Origin: Escherichia coli
Lineage (GTDB): Bacteria > Pseudomonadota > Gammaproteobacteria > Enterobacterales > Enterobacteriaceae
DNA length: 64,000 nucleotides
Assembly: GCF_013122565.1 (NCBI RefSeq)
Contig: NZ_CP053258.1
Strand: one strand, 5' to 3'
Shown here: piece after piece, positions 838 through 46,331 of the stretch
How the letters are laid out: the number at the start of each line of letters is the position of its first letter
Position numbering within the stretch: position 1 is the stretch's first letter
Translations under genes and position numbers: made by a program
The notes under the pieces: generated by a model
The model's input: the letters and a program-made list of their open reading frames with translations, nothing else
Database searches by the model: none
Told to the model about the DNA's origin: nothing

Positions 838-2582
838 TGGCCAAACTGCATTTTGTGAAGTTGCGCGTAAACGCCACGGTGCTCAAGCAAATCGTTATGC
901 GTACCGCGTTCCACAATGACACCATCCTCGACGACCACGATTTCGTCTGCCTTTTCAATGGTAGACAAGCGGTGGGCAATCACCAGAGAGGTACGGTTTT
1001 TCTGCAACTCATCCAGTGCCGCCTGAATCGCACGTTCGGATTCGGTATCCAGAGCCGAGGTAGCTTCGTCCAGAATCAGAATCGGGCTATCACGCAGCAA
1101 GGCTCGAGCGATAGCAATACGCTGACGCTGACCGCCAGAGAGCAGCACGCCGTTTTCACCAATCACTGTATCGAGACCGTTATCCATCTTATTGATGAAG
1201 TCCATGGCGTAGGCCATACGCGCCGCTTCTTCAATTTGCTCACGGCTGTACTGTTCAGTCCGTGCGTAAGCAATGTTGTTAGCAACCGTATCGTTAAACA
1301 GATGGACATTCTGCGACACCAGAGCAACCTGGTTACGTAACGACGCCAGGGTATACTCGCGCAGATCGTGACCATCCATCAGGATTTCGCCTTCATCAAT
1401 ATCGTAAAAACGCGTGATCAGGCTGGCGATAGTTGATTTACCTGAACCAGAGCGTCCAACCAGAGCAACCGTCTTCCCTGCCGGAATTTTCAGGTTGATG
1501 TTACGCAATGCGGGTACGTCACGTCCCGGATAAGTAAAGGTGACATTGCGGAATTCCACGTCGCCAGTCGCACGCTCGATCACGCGCTTACCTTCGTCTT
1601 TCTCCTGCTCACTGTCCAGAATGGTAAACAGCGTCTGACAAGCCGCCATACCGCGCTGGAACTGGGCGTTAACGTTGGTCAGCGATTTCAGTGGACGCAT
1701 CAGTGCAATCATTGAAGAGAAAACAACGGTAATCGTACCGGCAGTCAGGCTATCCATGACACTTGGGAAGCTCGCCGCATACAGAACAAACGCCAGCGCC
1801 AAAGAGGCGATCAGCTGAATGATCGGATCAGAGATGGAAGAGGCTGAAACCATTTTCATCCCCTGAAGACGCATTCGGTTACTGACTTTATCGAAGCGTT
1901 TCGTTTCCACTTCCTGACCACCGAAAATCAATACTTCTTTGTGGCCCTTCAGCATTTGTTCTGCGCTGGTGGTCACCTGCCCCATTGTGTTCTGCATGTT
2001 TTTACTGATGTTACGAAAACGCTTCGATACAACGCGAATCGCAATCGAAACAATCGGTGCCAGCACAATCAAAATGATCGACAGTTGCCAGCTGTAATAG
2101 AACATCATGATGAACAGGCCGATGATCGACGCACCTTCACGCACAACAGTAATCAGTGCGCTGGAAGAAGAAGAAGCAACCTGTTCGGAATCGTAGGTGA
2201 TACGTGACAACAGCGTACCCGTTGACTGTTTGTCAAAAAATGAAACAGGCATTCCCATCATGTGACCAAACAGGCGGCGACGCATAGTCATTACCACCTT
2301 TCCTGATACCCAGGAGATACAGTAGCTGGAGACATAGCTGGTGATACCACGTAAAATCATCAGCCCGATCACCACCAGCGGCATCCACACCAGCACGGAG
2401 CGATCTGTTTTACCAAAGCCATCATCAAGAAGTGGCTTAAGGAGCGATAACATGAAGGTATCGCTGGCTGCGTTGAGGATTAACGCTACGCCCGCCACGA
2501 TCAGACCCGCTTTAAAAGGCGCAATGGTTGGCCACAGTCGGCGGAACGTCTGCCACGTAGAGAGATCTTTGTCGTTATGCAT
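834..2582 (-). CDS. msbA: Lipid A/LPS ABC exporter (flippase)
   Basis: 582 aa ORF; N-terminal membrane domain plus Walker [10 protein letters not shown] and ABC signature LSGGQRQR; matches E. coli MsbA by recall. Confidence 0.96.
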
Positions 2583-2618
2583 TCAAAAAACCAGCATTTG
2601 TTGAAATAGCCGCATATT

Positions 2619-4883
2619 CTACCCGTTATCCACTGGCACGCCAAACCACTGATGATACCAACGAGGTAAAATTTGCTCCCTGAGGCTGCTAATCCGCCAG
2701 CCTTGCGCTGAAAAATTGACCGCTATTTGCCCCTGATGAGGAGTATCAAGCCACGTATAACCCTGTTGTTGATAGCGATGTTTAACTTTGCTTGAGGGCA
2801 ATCGCCATGCGTTATAGCGCGATGCCGATGCGAGTGCCACTTTTCCATTCACCCGCTGAATTAATGGTAACGATGATGAGGTATTACTGCCATGGTGAGG
2901 TACCTGAAGCAATGTTGCCTGCACTTGCTGCCAGTAACGGCTTAGCATCTTTTGTTCAGCGGGGACTTCAATATCACCGGTTAGAAGAATGCTATTCGTC
3001 CCGTCATCAACCTTAACCACACAGGAATGGTTATTTCCTTTATCGTTGCTAGCTTGTAAAGGCCAGTGCACGCTGAAACGCAATCCTTGCCATTGCCACG
3101 CTTCGCCACGCACACAGGGCTGATGATGTTCCCAGTTTAACGGACTTCTGATCCATAACATCGGCCATGTGTGCAATATTGAGTCCAGCCCTCCCCGGTG
3201 ATCCAGATGTTCATGACTCAGAATAACGCCTTCCGGTTCAAGATTATGCCAGTGGAGCCAGGGGATAATCAGTTGTTGCCCACTATCCCCTTCAGGCCAG
3301 GCCAATCCCGTGTCATAGAGAATCGCTTTGCCGTTTCTGGCTATCACCATTGCCAGCCCTTGCCCGACATCAAGCATGTACACTTGCCACTCGTCAGGTC
3401 GAGGTTTTTGCCACAGCGGCCAGCACATCAGCAAGCCTACAGCCACACACATTGCTGGCAACGTTCGCCAGGCGTTTAATCGCCATACCACCAGTAAGAA
3501 CCATGGGGAAAATGATAGCCATTGCCAACGTTCAGCAATGTTGATCCACCCTTCTGGCAAACTCTTTAACCCCCAGAAAAGTAAAGCCAAAGACCGGTCG
3601 GCAAGAAACCATAACCCTTGCTCCAGGATTAACAGCCCGCTTAAATGCACAACCATCGCGGCGAGGATCAACGGAACCGTGATAAATGTCACCAAGGGAA
3701 TTGCTAATAGATTTGCAATAAACGAGGTCAGACTAATGCCATGAAATATGACGATTTGCACGGGCATAAGCAGAAGTGTGATTCCCAGTTGCAGATGGAT
3801 GAGGGAAACAACTGCACGCAATACCGGCGGCAGTTGCCACTCAGGACAGGGAAACCACTGATACCAAAATATCAATGCCGCGACCGCAGCGGCAGAGAGC
3901 CATAAACTTTGCGAGAGAATGGCAACAGGATCCATCAGCAAAATTGCCGCCAGACAACATATCCATACATCCCAGCCACTCCACTGTCGCCCACTTAACT
4001 TAAGCATTCCCCACGTAGCAAGCGCCACAACGGTACGCAATGCAGGAGGTTGCATTCCCGTCAGCCAGGCATAAAAAGCAGCACAGCAGATTCCGCCAAT
4101 TAATGGCATTTGCCAGTGGATCCAGCGCCCAGGCAGAAAAATTTGTCCACTGCGAATGAGTCCGGCAGCCAGCAACGCCGCAAAAGCGATGTGCAATCCC
4201 GATATCGCCATTAAATGCGCCGTTCCAGTATCACGCATGATATTTTTGATTTCTTTAGGGACGGATAACCGTTCCCCCATACCTAAACCAAGAATAACCG
4301 CATTCCACATATAGGGTTGCAGCGTTGTTTGTAGTGACGCCAGATACTGTGCCCGCAGGCTACAATTCGGTTCAATGACACTTGCCTGCAGAAAGCGGCC
4401 GGTGAGCGGCTGATGCTGGGCAATGGCATAACGCTGGCTATCAAAGCCGCCATCATTAAGTTGACCATGAACTGCACGAACTTTGAGTTTCATTGACCAC
4501 AGTTGTCCGGCACAAACCGCTTGCGGAAGATATTCGCCATACAGCACAAGGCCTGGCGCAGGGAATATACGTCGACCTTGTAGATAAGTAATTTGACCGT
4601 AATGAGTGGTCATGCCGTCAGTAGCAGTGATCTCAACAATTGCATCCTGCGTCGCGCCAGTTAAGGTTTCTCCTGCCCACAAAATTTGCTTTGCTGATAA
4701 TATGCCCCAAACGAAAAACAGCAACGTCAGCGCGATATAACGGACGGTTTTAACAGGGATAAATGCCAGTACGCAGGCGAAGAGAGTCAGAAACGCAAGG
4801 GTTAATGTCCCAGGCAATTGGGGCAAAATCAGCAACGGAAAAATTCCGCAAATTATGCATACGCCGACTGTCGTTATTTTCAT
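2619..4883 (-). CDS. ycaI: ComEC/Rec2-family inner membrane protein with metallo-beta-lactamase domain
   Basis: ORF track 2619..4961 (780 aa); internal ATG at 4881-4883 (MKITTVG...) gives 754 aa; polytopic N-terminus, HEHLDHRGG metal-binding motif. Confidence 0.85.
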   Translation of the reverse strand: MKITTVGVCIICGIFPLLILPQLPGTLTLAFLTLFACVLAFIPVKTVRYIALTLLFFVWGILSAKQILWAGETLTGATQDAIVEITATDGMTTHYGQITYLQGRRIFPAPGLVLYGEYLPQAVCAGQLWSMKLKVRAVHGQLNDGGFDSQRYAIAQHQPLTGRFLQASVIEPNCSLRAQYLASLQTTLQPYMWNAVILGLGMGERLSVPKEIKNIMRDTGTAHLMAISGLHIAFAALLAAGLIRSGQIFLPGRWIHWQMPLIGGICCAAFYAWLTGMQPPALRTVVALATWGMLKLSGRQWSGWDVWICCLAAILLMDPVAILSQSLWLSAAAVAALIFWYQWFPCPEWQLPPVLRAVVSLIHLQLGITLLLMPVQIVIFHGISLTSFIANLLAIPLVTFITVPLILAAMVVHLSGLLILEQGLWFLADRSLALLFWGLKSLPEGWINIAERWQWLSFSPWFLLVVWRLNAWRTLPAMCVAVGLLMCWPLWQKPRPDEWQVYMLDVGQGLAMVIARNGKAILYDTGLAWPEGDSGQQLIIPWLHWHNLEPEGVILSHEHLDHRGGLDSILHTWPMLWIRSPLNWEHHQPCVRGEAWQWQGLRFSVHWPLQASNDKGNNHSCVVKVDDGTNSILLTGDIEVPAEQKMLSRYWQQVQATLLQVPHHGSNTSSSLPLIQRVNGKVALASASRYNAWRLPSSKVKHRYQQQGYTWLDTPHQGQIAVNFSAQGWRISSLREQILPRWYHQWFGVPVDNG

Positions 4884-5038
4884 GCACCCCTCCCTGTTTA
4901 TGGAAAGTGTGCAACTTTGTTGAGCGGTTGTCTGGTGGGAATTTTGCGTTCCCCGAGGCACATTCAGAAGAATTTAACGAAAGGGTGAAAACTGCTCAAA
5001 ACTCTGCGAGGCAGCTTCCAGTTCCTGATTAGAGAAAT

Positions 5039-5062
5039 GAAAAAAGCACCCGACAGGTGCTT
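5039..5062 (-). terminator. Rho-independent terminator downstream of ihfB
   Basis: Hairpin agcaccCGACAggtgct with an A-tract on the plus strand (U-tract on minus) just 3' of the ihfB stop. Confidence 0.6.
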
Positions 5063-5089
5063 TTCTCGCGTTCAAGTTTGAGTAAAAAC

Positions 5090-5374
5090 TTAACCGTAAA
5101 TATTGGCGCGATCGCGCAGTTCTTTACCAGGTTTAAAGTGAGGAACGTATTTTCCTTCCAGTTCTACTTTATCGCCAGTCTTCGGATTACGTCCGGTACG
5201 TGGTGCGCGGTAGTGCAAAGAGAAACTGCCGAAACCGCGGATTTCAATACGCTCGCCCTGCGCAAGAGTCGAGGCCATATGCTCCAGCATCTCTTTTACT
5301 GCATCTTCAACCGTCTTGGCGGGAATGTGCGATTGCTGGGTGGCAAGTCTTTCTATCAATTCTGACTTGGTCAT
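5090..5374 (-). CDS. ihfB: Integration host factor beta subunit
   Basis: 94 aa [13 protein letters not shown]...; HU/IHF fold sequence, matches E. coli IhfB by recall. Confidence 0.97.
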
Positions 5375-5489
5375 GATTCCTCCGGTTCCTTAAAGGCAAA
5401 TTAAGCGGCTGCTGTTGCTGCATTGATTAAGGGCGGCCGTAGCCGCCCTTAGTGCTTGATTACAGGACGAAACCTGCAATCTGTCAAGT

Positions 5490-5524
5490 AAACTCAACAA
5501 ACTTCGGAATAAAAATCCCGAAGA
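5490..5524 (-). terminator. Rho-independent terminator downstream of rpsA
   Basis: Minus strand reads CTCTTCGGGATTTTTATTCCGAAGTTTGTTGAGTTT directly after the rpsA stop: a hairpin followed by a U-rich tract. Confidence 0.55.
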
Positions 5525-5533
5525 GTCAGAGAA

Positions 5534-7207
5534 TTACTCGCCTTTAGCTGCTTTGAAAGCTTCAGCCATTGCGTTGTTGGAGAAGTTTGCATCTTCCTGT
5601 TTGTTAACAGTTGCGATTGCATCTTTCTCGTCAGCTTCGTCTTTCGCACGAACAGACAGGCTGATTGCGCGGTTTTTACGATCAACGCCGGTGAATTTAG
5701 CTTCAACTTCGTCGCCAACGCTCAGAACCAGGGTAGCGTCTTCAACGCGGTCACGGGATGCTTCAGAAGCACGCAGGTAACCTTCAACGCCGTCAGCCAG
5801 TTCTACGGTTGCGCCTTTAGCGTCAACTGCAGTTACTTTACCGGTTACGATAGCGCCTTTCTTGTTCAGAGCAACCCAGTTGTTGAACGGATCTTCTGCG
5901 AGCTGTTTAACGCCCAGGGAGATACGTTCACGTTCTGCGTCGACCTGCAGAACAACTGCAGCGATTTCGTCGCCTTTTTTGTATTCACGAACTGCTTCTT
6001 CGCCTGCAACGTTCCAGGAGATGTCAGACAGGTGAACCAGGCCGTCGATGCCGCCGTCCAGGCCGATGAAGATACCGAAGTCAGTGATAGACTTGATTTT
6101 ACCTTCAACACGGTCGCCCTTGTTGTGGGTTTCCGCGAACTGCTGCCACGGGTTAGCTTTGCACTGTTTCAGACCCAGGGAGATACGACGACGTTCTTCG
6201 TCGATATCCAGAACCATAACTTCCACTACATCGCCAACGTTAACAACTTTGGACGGGTGGATGTTTTTGTTGGTCCAATCCATTTCGGAAACGTGTACCA
6301 GGCCTTCAACGCCTTCTTCGATTTCAACGAAGCAGCCGTAGTCGGTCAGGTTGGTCACGCGACCAGTCAGTTTGGTACCTTCCGGATAACGTTTAGCGAT
6401 AGCTACCCACGGATCTTCGCCCAGCTGTTTCAGGCCCAGGGATACACGGGTACGTTCGCGGTCGAACTTCAGCACTTTAACAGTGATTTCGTCGCCCACG
6501 TTGACGATTTCGCTCGGATGCTTAACGCGTTTCCAGGCCATGTCAGTGATGTGCAGCAGGCCGTCAACGCCGCCCAGATCAACGAATGCACCGTAGTCAG
6601 TGAGGTTCTTAACGATACCTTTAACTTCCATGCCTTCCTGCAGGTTTTCCAGCAGCTGATCGCGCTCTGCGCTGTTTTCGGATTCGATAACGGCACGACG
6701 AGAAACAACAACGTTGTTGCGCTTCTGATCCAGCTTGATTACTTTGAATTCAAGCTCTTTGCCTTCCAGGTGCAGAGTGTCACGCACCGGACGAACGTCT
6801 ACCAGAGAACCTGGCAGGAACGCACGAATACCGTTCAGCTCAACAGTGAAGCCGCCCTTAACTTTGCCGTTGATAACACCGGTAACAGTTTCAGCATCTT
6901 CGTAAGCTTTTTCCAGCGTGATCCAGGCTTCGTGACGTTTAGCTTTCTCACGGGACAGCAGAGTTTCACCGAAGCCGTCTTCTACTGCGTCCAGAGCAAC
7001 GTCAACTTCGTCACCTACCTGGATTTCCAGCTCGCCCTGGGCGTTTTTGAACTGCTCAGCCGGGATGGCGGACTCAGATTTCAGACCAGCGTCAACCAGT
7101 ACTACGTCTTTGTCGATAGCAACAACAACGCCACGAACGATAGAACCCGGGCGGGTTTCGATTTCTTTTAAGGACTCTTCAAAGAGTTGAGCAAAAGATT
7201 CAGTCAT
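5534..7207 (-). CDS. rpsA: 30S ribosomal protein S1
   Basis: 557 aa ORF with repeated S1 domains; matches E. coli RpsA by recall. The long plus-strand ORF 6032..7171 is its antisense artefact. Confidence 0.98.
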
Positions 7208-7317
7208 GTTTAATCTTCAGGTTTATATTTAACGTCCACCTGGCTCCATGCCGGATGGGGTTGTTTAACATACCCGCTGTCATTCCATTGCAACGGGGGT
7301 ACTGCAAATTCGGTCGC

Positions 7318-8001
7318 TTATGCGAGAGCCAATTTCTGGCGCGCGTATTGTAGCGCTTTTTCAATCACTTGCTCAATGCTTAAGGTGGTGGAATCCAACA
7401 CTAAAGCATCGGCTGCCGGAACCAGTGGCGCTACCGCTCGGTTACGATCGCGGTCGTCGCGTTCTTTGATCTCGGCCAAAAGGCGCTCAAAGTTAACACT
7501 AAAGCCCTTCTCCTGCAACTGTAGCATGCGGCGATGCGCACGTTCTTCCGAGGAGGCGTCAAGGAAAATTTTCACTGGCGCATCAGGGAATACCACCGTT
7601 CCCATGTCGCGGCCATCGGCAATCAGGCCTGGTAATTCGCGAAACGCGCGTTGGCGACGCAATAATGCTTCACGAACGCGTGGGAATGCCGCGACTTGTG
7701 AAGCTGCATTCGCCACTTCCTGAGTACGAATTTCGCCGCTGACATCTTCCCCTTCGAGGATCACTTCCAGATTGCCATTGGTCGACACAAAACGTACATC
7801 CAGATGGGATGCCAGCGGTACCAGCGCATCTTCCGACGCAACATCGACATGGTGATGTAATGCCGCTAGTGCCAGTACGCGATAAATTGCACCCGAATCC
7901 AGCAGATGCCATTGCAATGCTTCCGCCATAGCCTTACACAAGGTGCCTTTCCCTGCACCGCTTGGGCCATCAATGGTAATAACCGGGGCAATTGCCGTCA
8001 T
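7318..8001 (-). CDS. cmk: Cytidylate kinase
   Basis: 227 aa ORF with P-loop GPSGAGKGT; matches E. coli Cmk. Confidence 0.96.
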
Positions 8002-8173
8002 CTTTATCTCCTTAAAACAGGCGTACCGTTAACATAACCGCGCGCATTATACGCGCCGACGCCACAAATCGTTAACGTTGTGTGCAAAAACCAGTTTTGT
8101 CTGTATTCAGATGGGGATTTATTGCGCAATTATAGCGGGCTGGCAGAAGACCAGCCCGAAAGATGACAATGAT

Positions 8174-8938
8174 TTACTTACCAGAGGCGATACGATCACG
8201 GATGTGTTGCGCACGCTCTGTTGATGGTGGGTGAGAGTCAAACATGGACTGGGTGCGACCGCCATCCAGGCTAGCCAGTTTTTCAAAGCTGCCAACCAGC
8301 CCCTGGGTGCTGATGCCACGTTTCTTCAACAGATCAAAGGAGAAATCATCTGCTTCGGACTCTTTATCGCGGGAGTATTTCGCATTGATAGCGCCTTCTG
8401 CGATATCGCCTAATTGTGAGCGAGAAAGCTGGGAAGCCACACCGCTGGTAGCGGAAATCGCATCACGTGCGGCCACGATCGCATAAGAAGCTTTCATTTC
8501 AGCCAGAGAGTGACCCAACGCGACGTGGCCCAGTTCATGGCCCAGAACGCCTTCAATTTCGTTGTCGTTCATCATGTCCATCAGGCCACTGTAGACACGA
8601 ACACAGCCGTTCGCCATCGCCCATGCGTTGACGTCGCTGGTCATATAAACCTTATAGTTGACCGGCGTGCCATTAATATTGTTACCCAATGCTTTGGCGA
8701 TTTTTGCCAGACGTTTACCGTACTTGCTGGATTTACTTGCGACTTGATTGCCGCTGTCCATTTCGGCACAGCCCTGATTGGCAATCGCTTTTGCATCGGC
8801 ATCGCTTAATGTTGCTGCTTTATAGGCATTTAAACCGGAGCTGATAGCCATATTGGTATCAATACCGTGGGTATTTTGACACCCTGTCAGTAATGCTGCA
8901 GAGACCGCAATCGCCAGCAGTAATTTAGTATTCTTCAT
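8174..8938 (-). CDS. ycaL: M48-family metallopeptidase lipoprotein
   Basis: ORF track 8174..8962; internal ATG at 8936-8938 gives 254 aa MKNTKLLLAIAVSAALLTGC (lipobox) with HELGH zinc motif. Confidence 0.85.
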   Translation of the reverse strand: MKNTKLLLAIAVSAALLTGCQNTHGIDTNMAISSGLNAYKAATLSDADAKAIANQGCAEMDSGNQVASKSSKYGKRLAKIAKALGNNINGTPVNYKVYMTSDVNAWAMANGCVRVYSGLMDMMNDNEIEGVLGHELGHVALGHSLAEMKASYAIVAARDAISATSGVASQLSRSQLGDIAEGAINAKYSRDKESEADDFSFDLLKKRGISTQGLVGSFEKLASLDGGRTQSMFDSHPPSTERAQHIRDRIASGK

Positions 8939-9036
8939 GTGAATCATCCGTTGATTAATCATATATAAATATTATGTATCAACAACTTACATTGACAAGC
9001 GACGCTACCATTAATCAAAATGACTCACAAGGTCCG

Positions 9037-9067
9037 AAAAAAAACGCCGGCAATGTGCCGACGTTTT
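9037..9067 (-). terminator. Terminator downstream of aroA (possibly bidirectional)
   Basis: GC hairpin cgccggcAATGTgccgacg flanked by an A-tract and a T-tract, immediately 3' of the aroA stop. Confidence 0.5.
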
Positions 9068-9106
9068 GATAAAGAAAGATTTGGCTATTTATTGCCCGTT
9101 GTTCAT

Positions 9107-10390
9107 TCAGGCTGCCTGGCTAATCCGCGCCAGCTGCTCGAAATAATCCGGAAATGTTTTGGCCGTACATTTGGGATCAAGAATCGTCACTGGTGTATCT
9201 GACAACGCCACCAGCGAGAAACACATCGCCATCCGGTGATCATTGTATGTCGCGATCTCGGCAAAGTTCAGTTTTTCCGGTGGAGTGATACGAATGTAAT
9301 CGTGCCCCTCTGCTACTTCTGCACCGACTTTACGCAGTTCTGTTGCCATCGCAAACAGGCGATCGGTCTCTTTAACACGCCAGTTATAGATATTGCGCAG
9401 CGTGGTGGTGCCTTTTGCAAATAACGCCGCGGTGGCAATGGTCATCGCCGCATCGGGAATATGGTTCATATCCATATCAATAGCGTTCAGTTCACCACGC
9501 GTGCAGGAAATATAATCATCGCCCCAGCAAATGGTCGCGCCCATTTTTTCCAGCACATCAGCAAAGCGAATATCACCCTGCATACTGTTGCGTCCAATGC
9601 CGGTCACTTTTACAGTGCCGCCTTTGATTGCTGCTGCTGCCAGAAAGTAAGAAGCGGAAGATGCATCGCCTTCGACCAAATAAGTACCCGGAGACTGATA
9701 AGACTGCCCGCCTTTAACGACAAATTGTTGATAGTGCTGATTTTCAATTTCAACACCAAACGTCTTCATCAGATTGAGTGTGATGTCGATATAAGGTTTA
9801 GAAACCAGATCGCCTTTAATACGAATCACCGTATCTTCCGGCGCAAGAGGCGCAGTCATTAATAGTGCGGTGAGGAACTGGCTGGAAACAGAGCCATCAA
9901 CGTCAACGTTGCCGCCAGTAAAGCCGCCCTGTAAACGCAATGGCGGATAATTTTCTTGTTCCAGGTAAGTGATCTTCGCCCCGCCCAGGCGCAGCGCATC
10001 CACCAGATGACCAATCGGGCGCTCTTTCATACGCGGCTCACCGGTCAGCACAATATCATTGCTACCCAGACAAAGAGCTGCCGCCAGCGGACGCATTGCC
10101 GTTCCGGCGTTACCGAGGAACAACTCCAGGGCGCTTTTTGCGTGTAATGGACCGCCGTTACCGATAATTTCGCAACGCGTACGATCGGCTGAAAGCGTAT
10201 AGCTTACCCCTAACGCTGCTAATGCATTCAGCATATGGCGCACGTCATCGCTATCCAGCAGATTGGTTAATACTGTTTTGCCGTGTGCTAATGCCGCCAG
10301 CAATAAAGCGCGGTTAGAAACGCTCTTGGAACCGGGCAGATTAATAGTGCCATCGACACGAGCGATGGGTTGTAACGTCAGGGATTCCAT
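9107..10390 (-). CDS. aroA: 3-phosphoshikimate 1-carboxyvinyltransferase (EPSP synthase)
   Basis: 427 aa [38 protein letters not shown]...; classic EPSPS N-terminus. Confidence 0.97.
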
Positions 10391-10460
10391 GAACTCAACT
10401 CTCTACAACAGAAATAAAAACCCCACAGGCTGGCTGTGGGGATTAAGCAAAATTTCGGCA

Positions 10461-11549
10461 TTAGCCGTGACGGCGTTCGAACTCAACCATGAAGTCTGTC
10501 AGCGCTTTAACGCCTTCCAGTGGCATGGCGTTATAAATGGACGCGCGCATTCCGCCGACCACACGGTGACCTTTCAGTGCATGAAGGCCAGCAGCAAAAG
10601 ACTCTTCAAGGAACAATTTGTCAAGCGCACTGTCTGCCAACTGGAAGGGTACGTTCATCCGCGAACGGTTAGGTTTCGCCACGTCGTTGCGGTAGAAATC
10701 GCTGTTATCAATCACCCCATACAGCAGTTCTGCTTTTTGCTGATTGATTTTATCCATTGCACCTACACCGCCGTTCGCTTTCAGCCATTTAAAGACCAGA
10801 CCAGACAGATACCAGGCAAATGTCGGTGGCGTGTTAAACATGGAGTCGTTATCGTTGAGGATGGAATAATCCAGAATCGACGGACACGCGATATTCGCTT
10901 TGCCCAGCAAATCTTCACGAACGATGACGATTGTCAGGCCTGCCGGGCCGATATTTTTCTGCGCGCCAGCGTAAATCACACCATAACGGTTAACATCGAT
11001 TGGACGAGAAAGAATGGTTGAAGAGAAGTCGGCGGCAACCACCACATCTTTGCCGAAGTCTGGCGTTTCGTCGATGGCGATACCGTCGATGGTTTCATTC
11101 GGGCAGTAATGCATATAAGCAGCATTATCAGAGAGTTGCCATTCACGCATTGGCTTAACCGCGCGCAGACCATCAACAGTCACTTTGGCGTCAAAGACAT
11201 TAGGCGTGCAGTATTTTTTCGCTTCTTTAATGGCACTTGCCGCCCAGTAACCGGCATCAACATAATCTGCGGTGGTTTTATCACCGAGAATATTCAGCGG
11301 TACCGCAGCAAACTGACCGCGACCACCGCCATGGCAGAATAATACCTTGTAGTTGGAGGGGACATTAAGAAGATCGCGAAAATCCTTCTCGGCTTCCTCT
11401 GCAACCTGAATGAACTCTTTGCCACGGTGACTCACTTCCATCACCGACGTACCAAGACCGTTCCAGTCGCGCAGTTCCTGTTGAGCCTGTTTAAGCACCT
11501 CTGCCGGTAGCATTGCCGGACCAGAACTAAAATTGAAGATTTGAGCCAT
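10461..11549 (-). CDS. serC: Phosphoserine aminotransferase
   Basis: 362 aa [18 protein letters not shown]...; class V aminotransferase; upstream of aroA as in the serC-aroA operon. Confidence 0.97.
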
Positions 11550-11747
11550 TTCCCCTCACCACGTTGCGTTGCTATTAACCCGCGGTCAATCGATTGCGAC
11601 CACAGGTAATACATTATTCCTGTGGCTATCGGTTTTATCATTCAGTGACACACATCGCAATGAGTAAAACCGTTGAGGGCAAAAATGTGGCTTGCATCAC
11701 ACAAAAGAATCTCTCGGATTATTAGCAAAAAGCCGATGTTTTTACTG

Positions 11748-12440
11748 TCAGGTCACCCGTTTTGCCCGACTTGCCTTCGTCCATTCTGGATTTGCACAGC
11801 GCGGACATAATTGTTTTTCCCCCGCGTTCATATGAATGATTTCACTACAACGAATGCAGGCATAGTCCGCCGACTCCGGCACCACTTTGTAACGCTGCGT
11901 ACAATCACTGGGTAAAATAAGTAAACCCGGTTTCACCTTGTCATCTTCAAAGAAATAGACACTGATTTGCCCGTTGGTTTCGAGAATTGCCAGACGTACT
12001 TGCCCCAACTGCTCTACACCACGCAATCGTAGCTCCATAAAGAACTCAAATTCCGTCATGTTGGAGTTATTGAGTTTCGACCAGGCCAGCTCGCCATCTT
12101 CAATAATAACAACCGGCTTGCCTTCCAGAAGATCTTCCAGTTTTTCACTGTGCGCCATCAACCACATTACCAGGCGGTATAACAACGCCAGAGTCATAAA
12201 GACGATAAGTACCGGCACCATCGGCACATCATCATAAAACGCCACATCTCCCGCCGCTGAACCCAGCGTCAGAATGATTAACACTTCAAAAAGCGACATC
12301 TGCCGCACTCCGCGTCGTCCGGTCATTTTGAGGAACAAAAAGACCAGTACAAAGGTATAAAGACTACGTAGTGCAACTTCGCCAAGGAAATCAAAAGGCA
12401 CTTTATCAAATGCCATACGGTGGAGATCGAACGCCTTCAT
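11748..12440 (-). CDS. ycaP: Inner membrane protein, DUF421 family
   Basis: 230 aa ORF with N-terminal transmembrane helices; position and length match E. coli YcaP by recall. Confidence 0.8.
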   Translation of the reverse strand: MKAFDLHRMAFDKVPFDFLGEVALRSLYTFVLVFLFLKMTGRRGVRQMSLFEVLIILTLGSAAGDVAFYDDVPMVPVLIVFMTLALLYRLVMWLMAHSEKLEDLLEGKPVVIIEDGELAWSKLNNSNMTEFEFFMELRLRGVEQLGQVRLAILETNGQISVYFFEDDKVKPGLLILPSDCTQRYKVVPESADYACIRCSEIIHMNAGEKQLCPRCANPEWTKASRAKRVT

Positions 12441-42909: not shown

Positions 42910-43131
<222 letters not shown>

Positions 43132-43384: not shown

Positions 43385-43472
43385 GGTGAGGTGTCCGAGT
43401 GGCTGAAGGAGCACGCCTGGAAAGTGTGTATACGGCAACGTATCGGGGGTTCGAATCCCCCCCTCACCGCCA
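43385..43472 (+). tRNA. serW: tRNA-Ser (anticodon GGA)
   Basis: 88-nt sequence GGTGAGGTGTCCGAGTGGCTGAAGGAGCACGCCTGGAAAGTGTGTATACGGCAACGTATCGGGGGTTCGAATCCCCCCCTCACCGCCA: long variable arm, GGA anticodon, encoded CCA end. Confidence 0.95.
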
Positions 43473-43483
43473 TATTTAAAGAA

Positions 43484-43512
43484 GAGCTCGTACGAAAGTA
43501 CGAGCTTTTTTT
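43484..43512 (+). terminator. Rho-independent terminator of serW
   Basis: gagctcgtacGAAAgtacgagc followed by TTTTTTT immediately after the tRNA. Confidence 0.8.
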
Positions 43513-43630
43513 CGCATAATGCACTCCAGGGGGGTGAGAAGCCCCGACCGGGGTTCGACAACTGGCGCAGCCAGTTGGACAGACCACGAACGCAGTGAGT
43601 GGGCTGCCCGCAGGGCGAGCGAAGCGAGTC

Positions 43631-43695
43631 AATCCCCCCCTCACCGCCATATTTAAAGAAGAACTCGTACGAAAGTACGGGCTTTTTTTTCGCAT
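43631..43695 (+). repeat. Direct duplicate of the tRNA-Ser 3' end plus terminator (copy 2)
   Basis: aatcccccctcaccgccatatttaaagaagaActcgtacgaaagtacgGgcttttttttcgcat repeats positions about 43455-43518 with 2-3 substitutions. Confidence 0.8.
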
Positions 43696-43841
43696 TTTAT
43701 CTGCCTGTACGGCAGTGAATATGGTGGGCGGGTGGAGTATGTTACCAGTGAATTTCTAAGCTGCCAGTACGGCAGTGAACGTTCGCTGCAACCGCTAGCC
43801 AAGACGGTAGGTTTTTCTAAGCTGCCTGTACGGCAGTGAAC
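43693..43841 (-). CRISPR. Orphan type I-F CRISPR mini-array (3 repeats, 2 spacers), no adjacent cas genes
   Basis: 28-bp repeats at 43693-43720 (degenerate), 43753-43780 and 43814-43841; plus strand reads TTTCTAAGCTGCC(T/A)GTACGGCAGTGAAC, the reverse complement of the E. coli I-F repeat GTTCACTGCCGTACAGGCAGCTTAGAAA. Spacers are 32 and 33 bp. AT-rich putative leader at 43842-44054. Confidence 0.8.
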
Positions 43842-44054
43842 TCAAATACTACACGTTTAGCCCGTTGTTAATAAAGCAAAACCATCTCATTCTCATGCTA
43901 CCACCCTTTTTTATCCTTACCTTCCCGCAGCACTAATTATCAACAACTTACCATCATTATTAAAAAAAGGGTCTGAACCTCCTCCACCCCATAAACAAAA
44001 AGTCCGTAACCTCTTTCGAGATTACGGACTTCATCAACCTACCTGACAATCAGA

Positions 44055-46331
44055 TTAATGCGCTGCTTCCGCCTTGTGCTTTTGTGCACTCTGGAATCCG
44101 TAAGTCAGCTCATTTTTCTCTTTATCCAGCGCGACGGTGACCTGACCGCCGTCCACCAGCGAACCAAACAACAGTTCGTTGGCGAGCGGTTTTTTCAGGT
44201 TGTCCTGGATGACACGCGCCATCGGACGTGCGCCCATTGCCCGGTCGTAACCTTTCTCGGCCAGCCAGTTACGCGCTTCCTGGCTCACTTCCAGAGAAAC
44301 ACCTTTCTGATCCAGCTGAACCTGCAACTCGACGATGAATTTATCCACCACCTGATGGATCACGTCAGTTGACAGATGATCGAACCAGATAATGTTGTCG
44401 AGACGGTTACGAAATTCCGGTGTAAAGATCTTCTTGATCTCTTCCATCGCATCGGTGCTGTTATCCTGGTGGATAAGACCAATGGATTTGCGCTCAGTTT
44501 CCCGTACCCCGGCGTTAGTGGTCATCACCAGCACCACGTTACGGAAGTCCGCTTTGCGTCCGTTGTTATCGGTCAGCGTACCGTTGTCCATCACCTGCAA
44601 CAGAATATTGAACACGTCCGGATGCGCTTTCTCGATTTCGTCCAGCAGCAGCACCGCATGTGGATGCTTGATTACCGCATCGGTCAGCAAACCGCCCTGA
44701 TCAAAACCAACGTATCCCGGAGGCGCACCAATCAGACGGCTGACGGTATGGCGTTCCATATACTCGGACATATCAAAGCGCAGCAGCTCAATGCCCAACG
44801 CTTTCGAAAGCTGTACCGTCACCTCTGTTTTCCCGACCCCGGTAGGGCCGGCAAACAGGAACGAACCGACCGGTTTATGTTCGTGACCTAAACCTGCACG
44901 AGCCATCTTAATGGCTTCAGTCAGCGCCTCAATGGCATTATCCTGACCGAAGACCAGCATTTTCAGGCGATCGCCGAGGTTTTTCAGGGTATCACGATCA
45001 CTCTGAGAAACACTCTTCTCTGGAATGCGTGCAATACGGGCCACCACGGACTCAATATCCGCCACATTTACGGTTTTCTTGCGTTTGCTTACCGGCATCA
45101 GGCGTGCGCGAGCGCCCGCTTCGTCGATAACATCAATCGCTTTATCCGGCAGATGACGATCGTTAATGTATTTCACCGCCAGCTCTACCGCCGCACGCAC
45201 CGCTTTTGCGGTATAACGCACGTCGTGGTGCGCTTCATACTTCGGTTTCAGGCCATTGATGATTTGAACAGTTTCTTCGATCGACGGTTCAGTAATATCA
45301 ATTTTCTGGAAGCGACGCGCCAGAGCACGGTCTTTCTCGAAAATGTTGCTGAACTCCTGATAGGTTGTCGAACCAATTACGCGAATTTTACCGCTGGAGA
45401 GCAACGGTTTGATCAGGTTAGCCGCATCGACCTGACCACCAGACGCTGCACCCGCACCGATAATGGTGTGGATCTCATCAATAAACAGGATGCTGTTAGT
45501 GTCCTGCTCCAGCTGCTTGAGCAACGCTTTAAAACGTTTTTCAAAGTCGCCGCGATATTTTGTGCCCGCTAACAGAGAACCGATATCGAGAGAATAAATC
45601 GTACAGTCAGCCATCACTTCCGGCACATCACCCTGAACAATTCGCCAGGCAAGACCTTCTGCAATCGCGGTTTTACCGACACCAGACTCCCCCACCAGCA
45701 GCGGGTTGTTTTTACGGCGACGGCAGAGAACCTGAATAGCACGCTCCAGCTCTTTCTCACGACCAATCAGTGGGTCGATTCCGCCCACACGCGCAAGCTG
45801 GTTCAGGTTCGTCGTGAAATTCTCCATACGTTCCTCCCCACCAGCTTGTTCTTCGCTGTTTGGCTGGCTGCCAGGATCAGAAGACTGTGTCGGCTCGTCT
45901 TTACGCGTGCCATGAGAGATAAAGTTCACCACATCGAGACGGCTGACTTCATGTTTACGCAACAGATATGCCGCCTGCGACTCCTGTTCGCTAAAGATAG
46001 CGACCAGAACGTTTGCACCGGTAACCTCATTGCGACCGGAGGACTGGACATGGAAGACCGCACGTTGCAGTACACGCTGAAAACTCAGCGTCGGCTGTGT
46101 GTCGCGCTCCTCTTCACTGGCAGGCAGAACGGGTGTGGTTTGTTCAATAAAGGCTTCCAGTTCCTGACGGAGCGCAACCAAATCCACAGAACACGCTTCC
46201 AGCGCCTCCCGGGCAGATGGGTTACTGAGCAGCGCCAGTAACAAGTGCTCGACGGTCATAAACTCATGACGGTGCTCGCGCGCTCTGGCGAAAGCCATAT
46301 TTAAACTGAGTTCCAGTTCTTGATTGAGCAT
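44055..46331 (-). CDS. clpA: ATP-dependent Clp protease ATP-binding subunit ClpA
   Basis: ORF track 44055..46346; ATG at 46329-46331 ([19 protein letters not shown]...) gives 758 aa; two AAA+ modules ([16 protein letters not shown]). Confidence 0.97.

Follow-up and report, generated by a model that had tools for sequence, protein, structure and literature searches.

A cas-less type I-F CRISPR array with spacers matching cas1f and cas3f between serW and clpA of an Escherichia coli genome

The stretch between serW and clpA of the E. coli genome studied here raises the question of what a CRISPR array of only three repeats is doing at a site that has no cas genes. The original prediction had described it as an orphan type I-F mini-array with a putative leader, and had noted from the literature that arrays at this clpA-infA locus can carry spacers against I-F cas genes and may block the uptake of an active I-F system. 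We analyzed the locus within a window of 64 kb, by which we mean the whole stretch of DNA under study (64,000 nucleotides), and concluded that the array is the known orphan type I-F CRISPR of the E. coli/Shigella clpA-infA locus, and that it probably blocks establishment of I-F systems. It is a well-known feature that has already been described, retained by most E. coli after loss of their type I-F cas genes, and the window adds no new biology to it. Its parts, and those of its surroundings, are as follows.

42913-43131, plus strand: infA, a flanking gene
43385-43472, plus strand: serW, tRNA-Ser(GGA), a flanking core gene
43514-43689, plus strand: RtT-like element with a second serW 3′ end and terminator, outside the CRISPR array and filling the gap from serW to the terminal repeat
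43693-43720, minus strand: degenerate terminal repeat, ATTCACTGCCGTACAGGCAGATAAAATG, with its hairpin intact, its 3′ part diverged and a private substitution at 43720
43721-43752, minus strand: spacer a, anti-cas1f, 32 nt, TTCACTGGTAACATACTCCACCCGCCCACCAT in the crRNA sense, matching codons 33-43 of cas1f
43753-43780, minus strand: middle repeat, whose hairpin loop has a single private base change at 43766 (GUACA to GUACU)
43781-43813, minus strand: spacer b, anti-cas3f, 33 nt, AACCTACCGTCTTGGCTAGCGGTTGCAGCGAAC in the crRNA sense, matching codons 201-212 of cas3f (cas2-3)
43814-43841, minus strand: leader-proximal repeat, a perfect I-F consensus, whose reverse complement is GTTCACTGCCGTACAGGCAGCTTAGAAA
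43842-43998, minus strand: leader, A+T-rich, with a homologue upstream of the array next to cas1f in I-F-positive strains
43999-44032, minus strand: intrinsic terminator of clpA, a 15-bp stem followed by a T run, conserved in the leader alignment
44055-46331, minus strand: clpA, a flanking core gene, seen as an open reading frame

Array anatomy was observed directly and agrees to the nucleotide with what had been proposed, namely three 28-nt direct repeats (43693-43720, 43753-43780, and 43814-43841), the leader-distal one degenerate, which start 60 and 61 nt apart and enclose spacers of 32 and 33 nt whose boundaries were likewise placed exactly. These lengths and this period are those of type I-F arrays (spacers of ~32 nt, repeated every ~60 nt). 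Relative to the I-F consensus, GTTCACTGCCGNACAGGCAGCTTAGAAA, the three copies have 0, 1, and 6 mismatches. The leader-proximal copy is identical at 28/28 positions to the repeat of annotated I-F arrays, including the one beside the cas genes of strain NGF1, and the pattern of its reverse complement, with up to three mismatches allowed, occurs twice in the 64-kb window and not at all in 100 shuffles. On the minus strand, the Rfam model CRISPR-DR4 (gathering score 35) scores 50.1 bits at 43814-43841 and 41.7 bits at 43753-43780, and 26.6 bits, which is under the gathering score, at the terminal copy. The latter is 75% identical to the reference copy, and K-12, SCU316, and XH990 share this terminal repeat.

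One might suppose that so few copies, adjoined by an RtT-like repeated element, are chance or unrelated repeats, such as REP/BIME or RtT-related sequences, rather than a CRISPR. We give practically no credence to this idea, and a non-CRISPR repeat family is refuted by the Rfam CRISPR-DR4 matches (E-values of 2e-10 and 7e-8), the perfect 28/28 I-F repeat, the regular spacing of 60-61 nt, and the protospacers, flanked by a PAM, that are described below. The original prediction had named repeats that do not resemble the I-F consensus as grounds for its rejection; the leader-proximal copy matches that consensus perfectly, and its reading of the repeat as a type I-F repeat on the minus strand is borne out by the Rfam match and by the identity to the NGF1 array repeat.

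All three repeats are predicted to form the 5-bp CUGCC/GGCAG stem of the Cas6f stem-loop type, with hairpin energies of -8.6 (43814-43841), -7.8 (43753-43780), and -8.6 kcal/mol (43693-43720). The 8-nt 5′ handle, CUUAGAAA, is intact in both of the repeats that are required to supply one; that of the cas3f-targeting crRNA comes from the repeat at 43814-43841. Since the hairpins and the needed handles have been kept, both crRNAs could, by these predictions, mature if Cas6f were supplied.

Minus-strand reading, as had been proposed, is supported by four independent features: the orientation of the repeat; the position of the degenerate copy, at the end far from clpA; the homology of the clpA-side flank to the leader that precedes the cas1f-adjacent array of I-F-positive strains; and a CC PAM that adjoins both protospacers in the minus-strand orientation only. 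The homology of the leader was observed in an alignment of the window with NGF1, K-12, and four other strains, which showed almost no variation over the ~105 nt that adjoin the first repeat. A+T content is 61% over 43842-43992, as against 49% for the whole window. The leader had been proposed to extend over 43842-44054; an A+T-rich leader is indeed present, but the last ~55 nt (43999-44054) consist of the clpA terminator and the spacing to the stop codon. Because the terminator occupies 43999-44032, the true leader is ~43842-43998, and transcription of clpA is separated from it. On the minus strand, from 43963 to 43936, there is a sigma-70-like site (TTAATA, 16 nt, GATAAT), which is a consensus match only. 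We also looked for an IHF site in the leader, where the consensus match was too weak to claim one.

The gene order infA, serW, array, clpA is matched in annotated E. coli genomes, and the top identity of clpA to that of any complete E. coli genome is 99.4%. A tblastn search of the 64-kb window with the six Cas proteins of NGF1 found no Cas homologue, the only matches being the two spacers themselves, which confirms for this window that the locus has no cas genes. The cas1, cas2-3, csy1-3, and cas6f genes that would adjoin a type I-F array are thus missing from the window, and the canonical locus of the strain is I-F-negative. It is on account of this absence that the array is called "orphan"; the absence is no argument against type I-F. 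The further claim that infA/serW and clpA flank the array directly held for the genes themselves, but not for the interval on the serW side, in which an RtT-like element and a second serW 3′ end lie between serW and the array. The RtT-like part (43514-43649, 136 nt) scores 41.8 bits with the Rfam RtT model, whose gathering score is 45, and the second serW 3′ end with its terminator (43631-43689) is a 97% identical copy of 43454-43512 (repeat family D1). The element is present in SCU113 and absent from K-12, SCU316, and XH990, and in some genomes RefSeq annotates an "RtT sRNA" beneath the matches to our serW-clpA query. Repeat and pattern searches of the window for the remnant of a second array on the infA side found none. 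We also looked for the junction of a deletion where the serW flank meets the terminal repeat; no clear one could be defined, and the orphan terminal repeat is unlike that of NGF1.

The serW gene itself differs between the two kinds of strain compared. The T-stem of the I-F-negative window (43385-43472) reads GGGGG...CCCCC, and that of I-F-positive NGF1 (positions 4744-4831 of its locus, L001) reads CGGGG...CCCCG. As this double change is compensatory, it suggests that the 3′ part of serW may travel with the cas island upon exchange of the locus.

What, then, are the two spacers directed against? The original prediction had left it to a search whether they match I-F cas genes, and they do: spacer a matches cas1f with 0-2 mismatches and spacer b matches cas3f with 2-4, depending on the allele. 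In every cas allele that we examined, both protospacers were observed with a 5′-CC PAM beside them. The seed of an I-F crRNA reportedly comprises positions 1-5, 7, and 8, a definition that is said to go back to Wiedenheft et al. in 2011. The alleles compare as follows.

E. coli E69 (CP089930.1): spacer a, 0 mismatches; spacer b, target outside the fetched locus; PAM CC
TCM_B_2/503025: spacer a, 2 mismatches (positions 4 and 10); spacer b, 2 mismatches (positions 11 and 33), with the seed intact; PAM CC
NGF1/LF82/ATCC 11775: spacer a, 1 mismatch (position 4, in the seed); spacer b, 4 mismatches (positions 2, 11, 19, and 20, of which position 2 is in the seed); PAM CC

The background in such comparisons is far higher, as 50 shuffled spacers gave 12-16 mismatches to the operon and NGF1's own ten spacers gave 13-15. 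The GG/CC PAM of E. coli I-F systems has been documented before (PMC3506596). All differences between the two spacers and the cas1f and cas3f genes of NGF1 are synonymous changes at third codon positions, and the spacers therefore derive from diverged alleles of these genes.

A search of a phage database found no target of either spacer in phages. In PLSDB, none was found in genuine plasmids, where the matches were to repeats only, in the I-F arrays of Legionella, Acinetobacter, Serratia, and others, together with one further weak match to a Vitreoscilla cas1f gene (81.6%). When genome contigs were scanned for an exact 26-mer of the cas1f spacer, only two loci were recovered, namely E69, which has the perfect protospacer, and a contig of a metagenome-assembled genome. 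A degenerate pattern covering both cas3f alleles gave 0 matches in the contig scan; it matches NGF1 and ATCC 11775 locally, and these genomes are perhaps outside the collection, or degenerate codes are perhaps unhandled. A search of a library of papers for the spacer sequences found no occurrence.

Several database records that emerged from these searches call for comment in their own right. The metagenomic contig (JADFJT010000085.1, labeled "Proteobacteria bacterium") is of E. coli type over 1-1400, where serW and a K-12-like two-repeat array accompany the 3′ end of clpA, and the proteins that it encodes over 1500-12277, one of them YaaA-like, are at odds with the E. coli aat-cydCD gene order; it is probably a chimeric or contaminated assembly. 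In PLSDB, the 73.7-kb E. coli "plasmid" NZ_CP148399.1 consists of a chromosomal macB-cspD-clpS-clpA-array-infA-aat-cydCD segment, and several other E. coli "plasmid" records are chromosome-sized; all of these are most likely mislabeled chromosomal contigs.

That the only significant matches of the spacers are to I-F cas genes, which are absent from the window, bears on another explanation, in which the minus-strand transcript would act independently of Cas proteins as a small antisense RNA, for example on serW/RtT or on another host target. Such a role would draw on the promoter-like site in the leader and on the course of the transcript, which would run convergently into the RtT/serW terminator region. 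We consider it very improbable, as a host target is not evident and the features that have been conserved, namely the hairpin, the handle, and an orientation consistent with the PAM, are exactly those that Cas6f and the Csy complex need.

The preferred reading, that of a resident array turned against incoming I-F systems, would work as follows, where transcription, processing, and interference are taken from the literature or inferred. A minus-strand transcript of the array would arise from the array's own leader beside clpA, and in a cas-less cell, which has no Cas6f, the transcript would be without effect. Were an I-F operon to enter, its Cas6f would be expected to cleave the transcript already present in the cell at its three repeat hairpins, all of them intact, and so to yield a crRNA against cas1f and another against cas2-3 (cas3f). 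The incoming Csy complex would load them, recognize the CC-flanked protospacers within the incoming cas genes, and recruit Cas2-3, leading to destruction of the very DNA that encodes it, while a spacer with seed mismatches would instead prime the acquisition of further spacers. On balance, the cell would block establishment of the I-F system. The principle is a known one, in which a bacterium turns a CRISPR array on CRISPR-Cas itself and so excludes an immune system that would restrict gene flow.

If the array acts in this way, spacer and target should not meet in one genome. We surveyed 5,426 complete E. coli genomes with queries of 82-83 nt, each composed of a spacer and its cas-gene flanks. 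At the E-value used, only exact copies of a spacer are detectable, and on this basis the cas1f spacer was present in 545 of the 5,426 genomes and the cas3f spacer in 472, while cas1f/cas3f were present in 241. A cas gene together with an exact spacer against that gene was observed in none of the 5,426. As I-F carriers belong mostly to one clade (PMC2886076), this mutual exclusion of spacer and cas gene is partly phylogenetic.

The same two-spacer array recurs in many E. coli genomes, as the comparison called for by the original prediction established. The whole 149-nt array was matched at 98.7% identity and full length in each of the 25 best-listed genomes, and was covered to at least 80% in 171. 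Aligned with that of XH990, it has only two differences, at 43720 and 43766, both in repeats. Elsewhere the array has changed more. In C10 (L006, 644-788) and GPEC206 (L003, 644-849), a 4-nt deletion shortens the cas1f spacer to 28 nt, and GPEC206 also has a tandem duplication of the cas3f spacer unit; SCU113 has a different cas3f spacer. Given that the array has decayed in C10, GPEC206, and K-12, selection on every spacer is not absolute. In RefSeq complete genomes the orphan array is unannotated in nearly all cases, a "CRISPR" feature being given there in few. Its spacers would make useful lineage markers.

Such decay, in the form of the 4-nt spacer deletion, the loss of a spacer unit, and repeat substitutions in some lineages, is also compatible with an inert fossil, in which self-targeting of cas1 and cas2-3 had selected for deletion of the cas operon and left a functionless array behind. 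That origin was proposed by Diez-Villasenor et al., as quoted in PMC2886076 and PMC8616872, and it accords with the position of the array, at the exact place of the cas1f-adjacent array of I-F-positive strains and with the same leader. As an account of the present state of the array we nevertheless regard it as unlikely. The hairpins, the 5′ handles, the ~105 leader-proximal nt, and the spacers are well kept across divergent lineages, and the best spacer matches are to allele groups other than the main E. coli one, which fits the targeting of incoming variants. Moreover, in the view of Touchon and Rocha, these spacers have persisted amid the turnover of others, and arrays that lack cas genes represent the ancestral state (PMC2886076). 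Experiments are also reported to have shown that native orphan arrays interfere (PMC8616872, PMC5972030). An origin by self-targeting and a present anti-cas function are compatible, and the part of the fossil explanation that concerns origin may well be correct.

Returning to an array that acts on incoming cas genes, we asked which of their alleles it would affect. The NGF1/LF82/ATCC 11775-type allele accounts for ~200 of the 241 I-F carriers, and the TCM_B_2/503025-type cas3f is found in ~40 genomes. Against the majority allele, of the NGF1 type, both spacers have a mismatch in the seed, at position 4 for cas1f and at position 2 for cas3f, and for that reason direct interference is expected to be weak and any effect to depend on priming. 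The best fits lie elsewhere: the cas1f spacer is perfect to the cas1f of E69, and the cas3f spacer is seed-intact to the cas3f of TCM_B_2/503025. This fit to minority alleles is a modest observation that goes beyond the literature we examined. It may mean that exclusion of I-F systems is lineage-specific, each spacer fitting a minority allele best, although we put this forward tentatively and think it rather less probable than not. If it were true, the array would strongly block some I-F lineages, the majority B2-type allele would escape it or elicit priming alone, and this would explain why the majority allele has spread.

Among the I-F-positive strains, we made two further observations. In E. 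coli VTB96815v (L012, 33-2154), cas1f, a pseudogene in the annotation, is cut short by an ISCro1 element of the IS66 family, and the array on the clpA side is still present; the I-F locus of this strain appears to be in decay. The other concerns the 330 nt between cas3f and csy1 in I-F-positive E. coli, which hold a degenerate mini-array antisense to the cas genes. In NGF1 (L001, 8991-9070), it is composed of a first repeat-like element (CCCAAACTGCCTTGAGCAGCTTAGAAA), a 25-nt spacer-like element (TAGAGGTATCTCCGGATACGGACTT), and a second repeat-like element (GTAAACTGCCGTACAGGCAGCTCGCGCC), with the 5′ handle and hairpin intact. A single CC-flanked partial target lies ~100 nt away (L001, 8887-8900) and matches at positions 1-11 except 6. 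In TCM_B_2, the mini-array is at 5356-5435 of L011 and its target at 5251-5264, and a G-to-T change at position 5 is shared by the spacer-like element and the target. This covariation argues for a candidate guide-target pair that is functional. Its architecture is that of the CreTA/CreR elements in the cas3-csy1 intergenic region of the I-F systems of Acinetobacter and P. aeruginosa, as presented in PMC10097628 and bioRxiv 10.64898/2026.06.02.729485; the searched passages of these two sources do not describe such a module in E. coli I-F.

The closest known counterpart of the array in the window is the one that Touchon and Rocha named CRISPR3 in 2010, proposing for it an anti-CRISPR role (PMC2886076). 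These authors matched spacers "1 and 2" of the array to Ypest Cas1 and Cas3 and noted at least one such spacer in every cas-less strain (PMC2886076). The Mojica group calls it CRISPR4.1-2, at locus CRISPR-III (PMC3903273; Diez-Villasenor 2010; Almendros 2014, 2016). According to two reviews by the same group (PMC8616872, PMC5972030), Almendros et al. (2016) found in other strains that native orphan arrays are transcribed constitutively, give interference against plasmids that bear I-F cas genes, and induce primed adaptation. What the original prediction had stated of clpA-infA orphan arrays, with their anti-cas spacers and their block to uptake, was thus correct by PMC2886076 and by the two reviews. 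The window shares with CRISPR3/CRISPR4.1-2 the locus, the repeat, the modified terminal repeat, the leader, the absence of cas genes, and the cas1 and cas3 spacers; like them, it occupies the clpA-serW/infA site of a strain without I-F cas genes there, has spacers that match cas genes, and belongs to a set of spacers and targets that do not co-occur. It differs in the private substitutions at 43766, in the loop of the middle repeat, and at 43720, the first base of the terminal repeat, and in having, between the array and serW, an RtT-like unit that is confined to some strains. The arrays of XH990, EC1515, O157:H16 Santai, and many others differ from it at 2 of 149 nt.

The mini-array of K-12 MG1655 shares the locus, the leader, the terminal repeat, and a cas1f-derived spacer with the window, but has two repeats and one spacer; its cas1f spacer is one base off, at crRNA position 6, and it is without the cas3f spacer. 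In NGF1, the I-F locus is ordered infA, CRISPR, serW, cas6f-csy3-csy2-csy1-cas3f-cas1f, CRISPR, clpA, and the array in the window is the counterpart of the clpA-side array, with an identical repeat, a homologous leader, and the same chromosomal site. Unlike the window, I-F-positive strains have cas1f, cas3f, csy1-3, and cas6f, in an operon that sits between serW and the array, as well as long arrays and, between infA and serW, a second array, and the spacers of NGF1, unlike those of the window, do not match cas genes. Finally, isolated or orphan arrays in general are cas-less arrays with cognate repeats that can be used by Cas proteins from elsewhere (PMC2886076). The array described here differs from that general case in that an invader would bring the Cas proteins, and it is the cas genes of this same invader that the spacers target.
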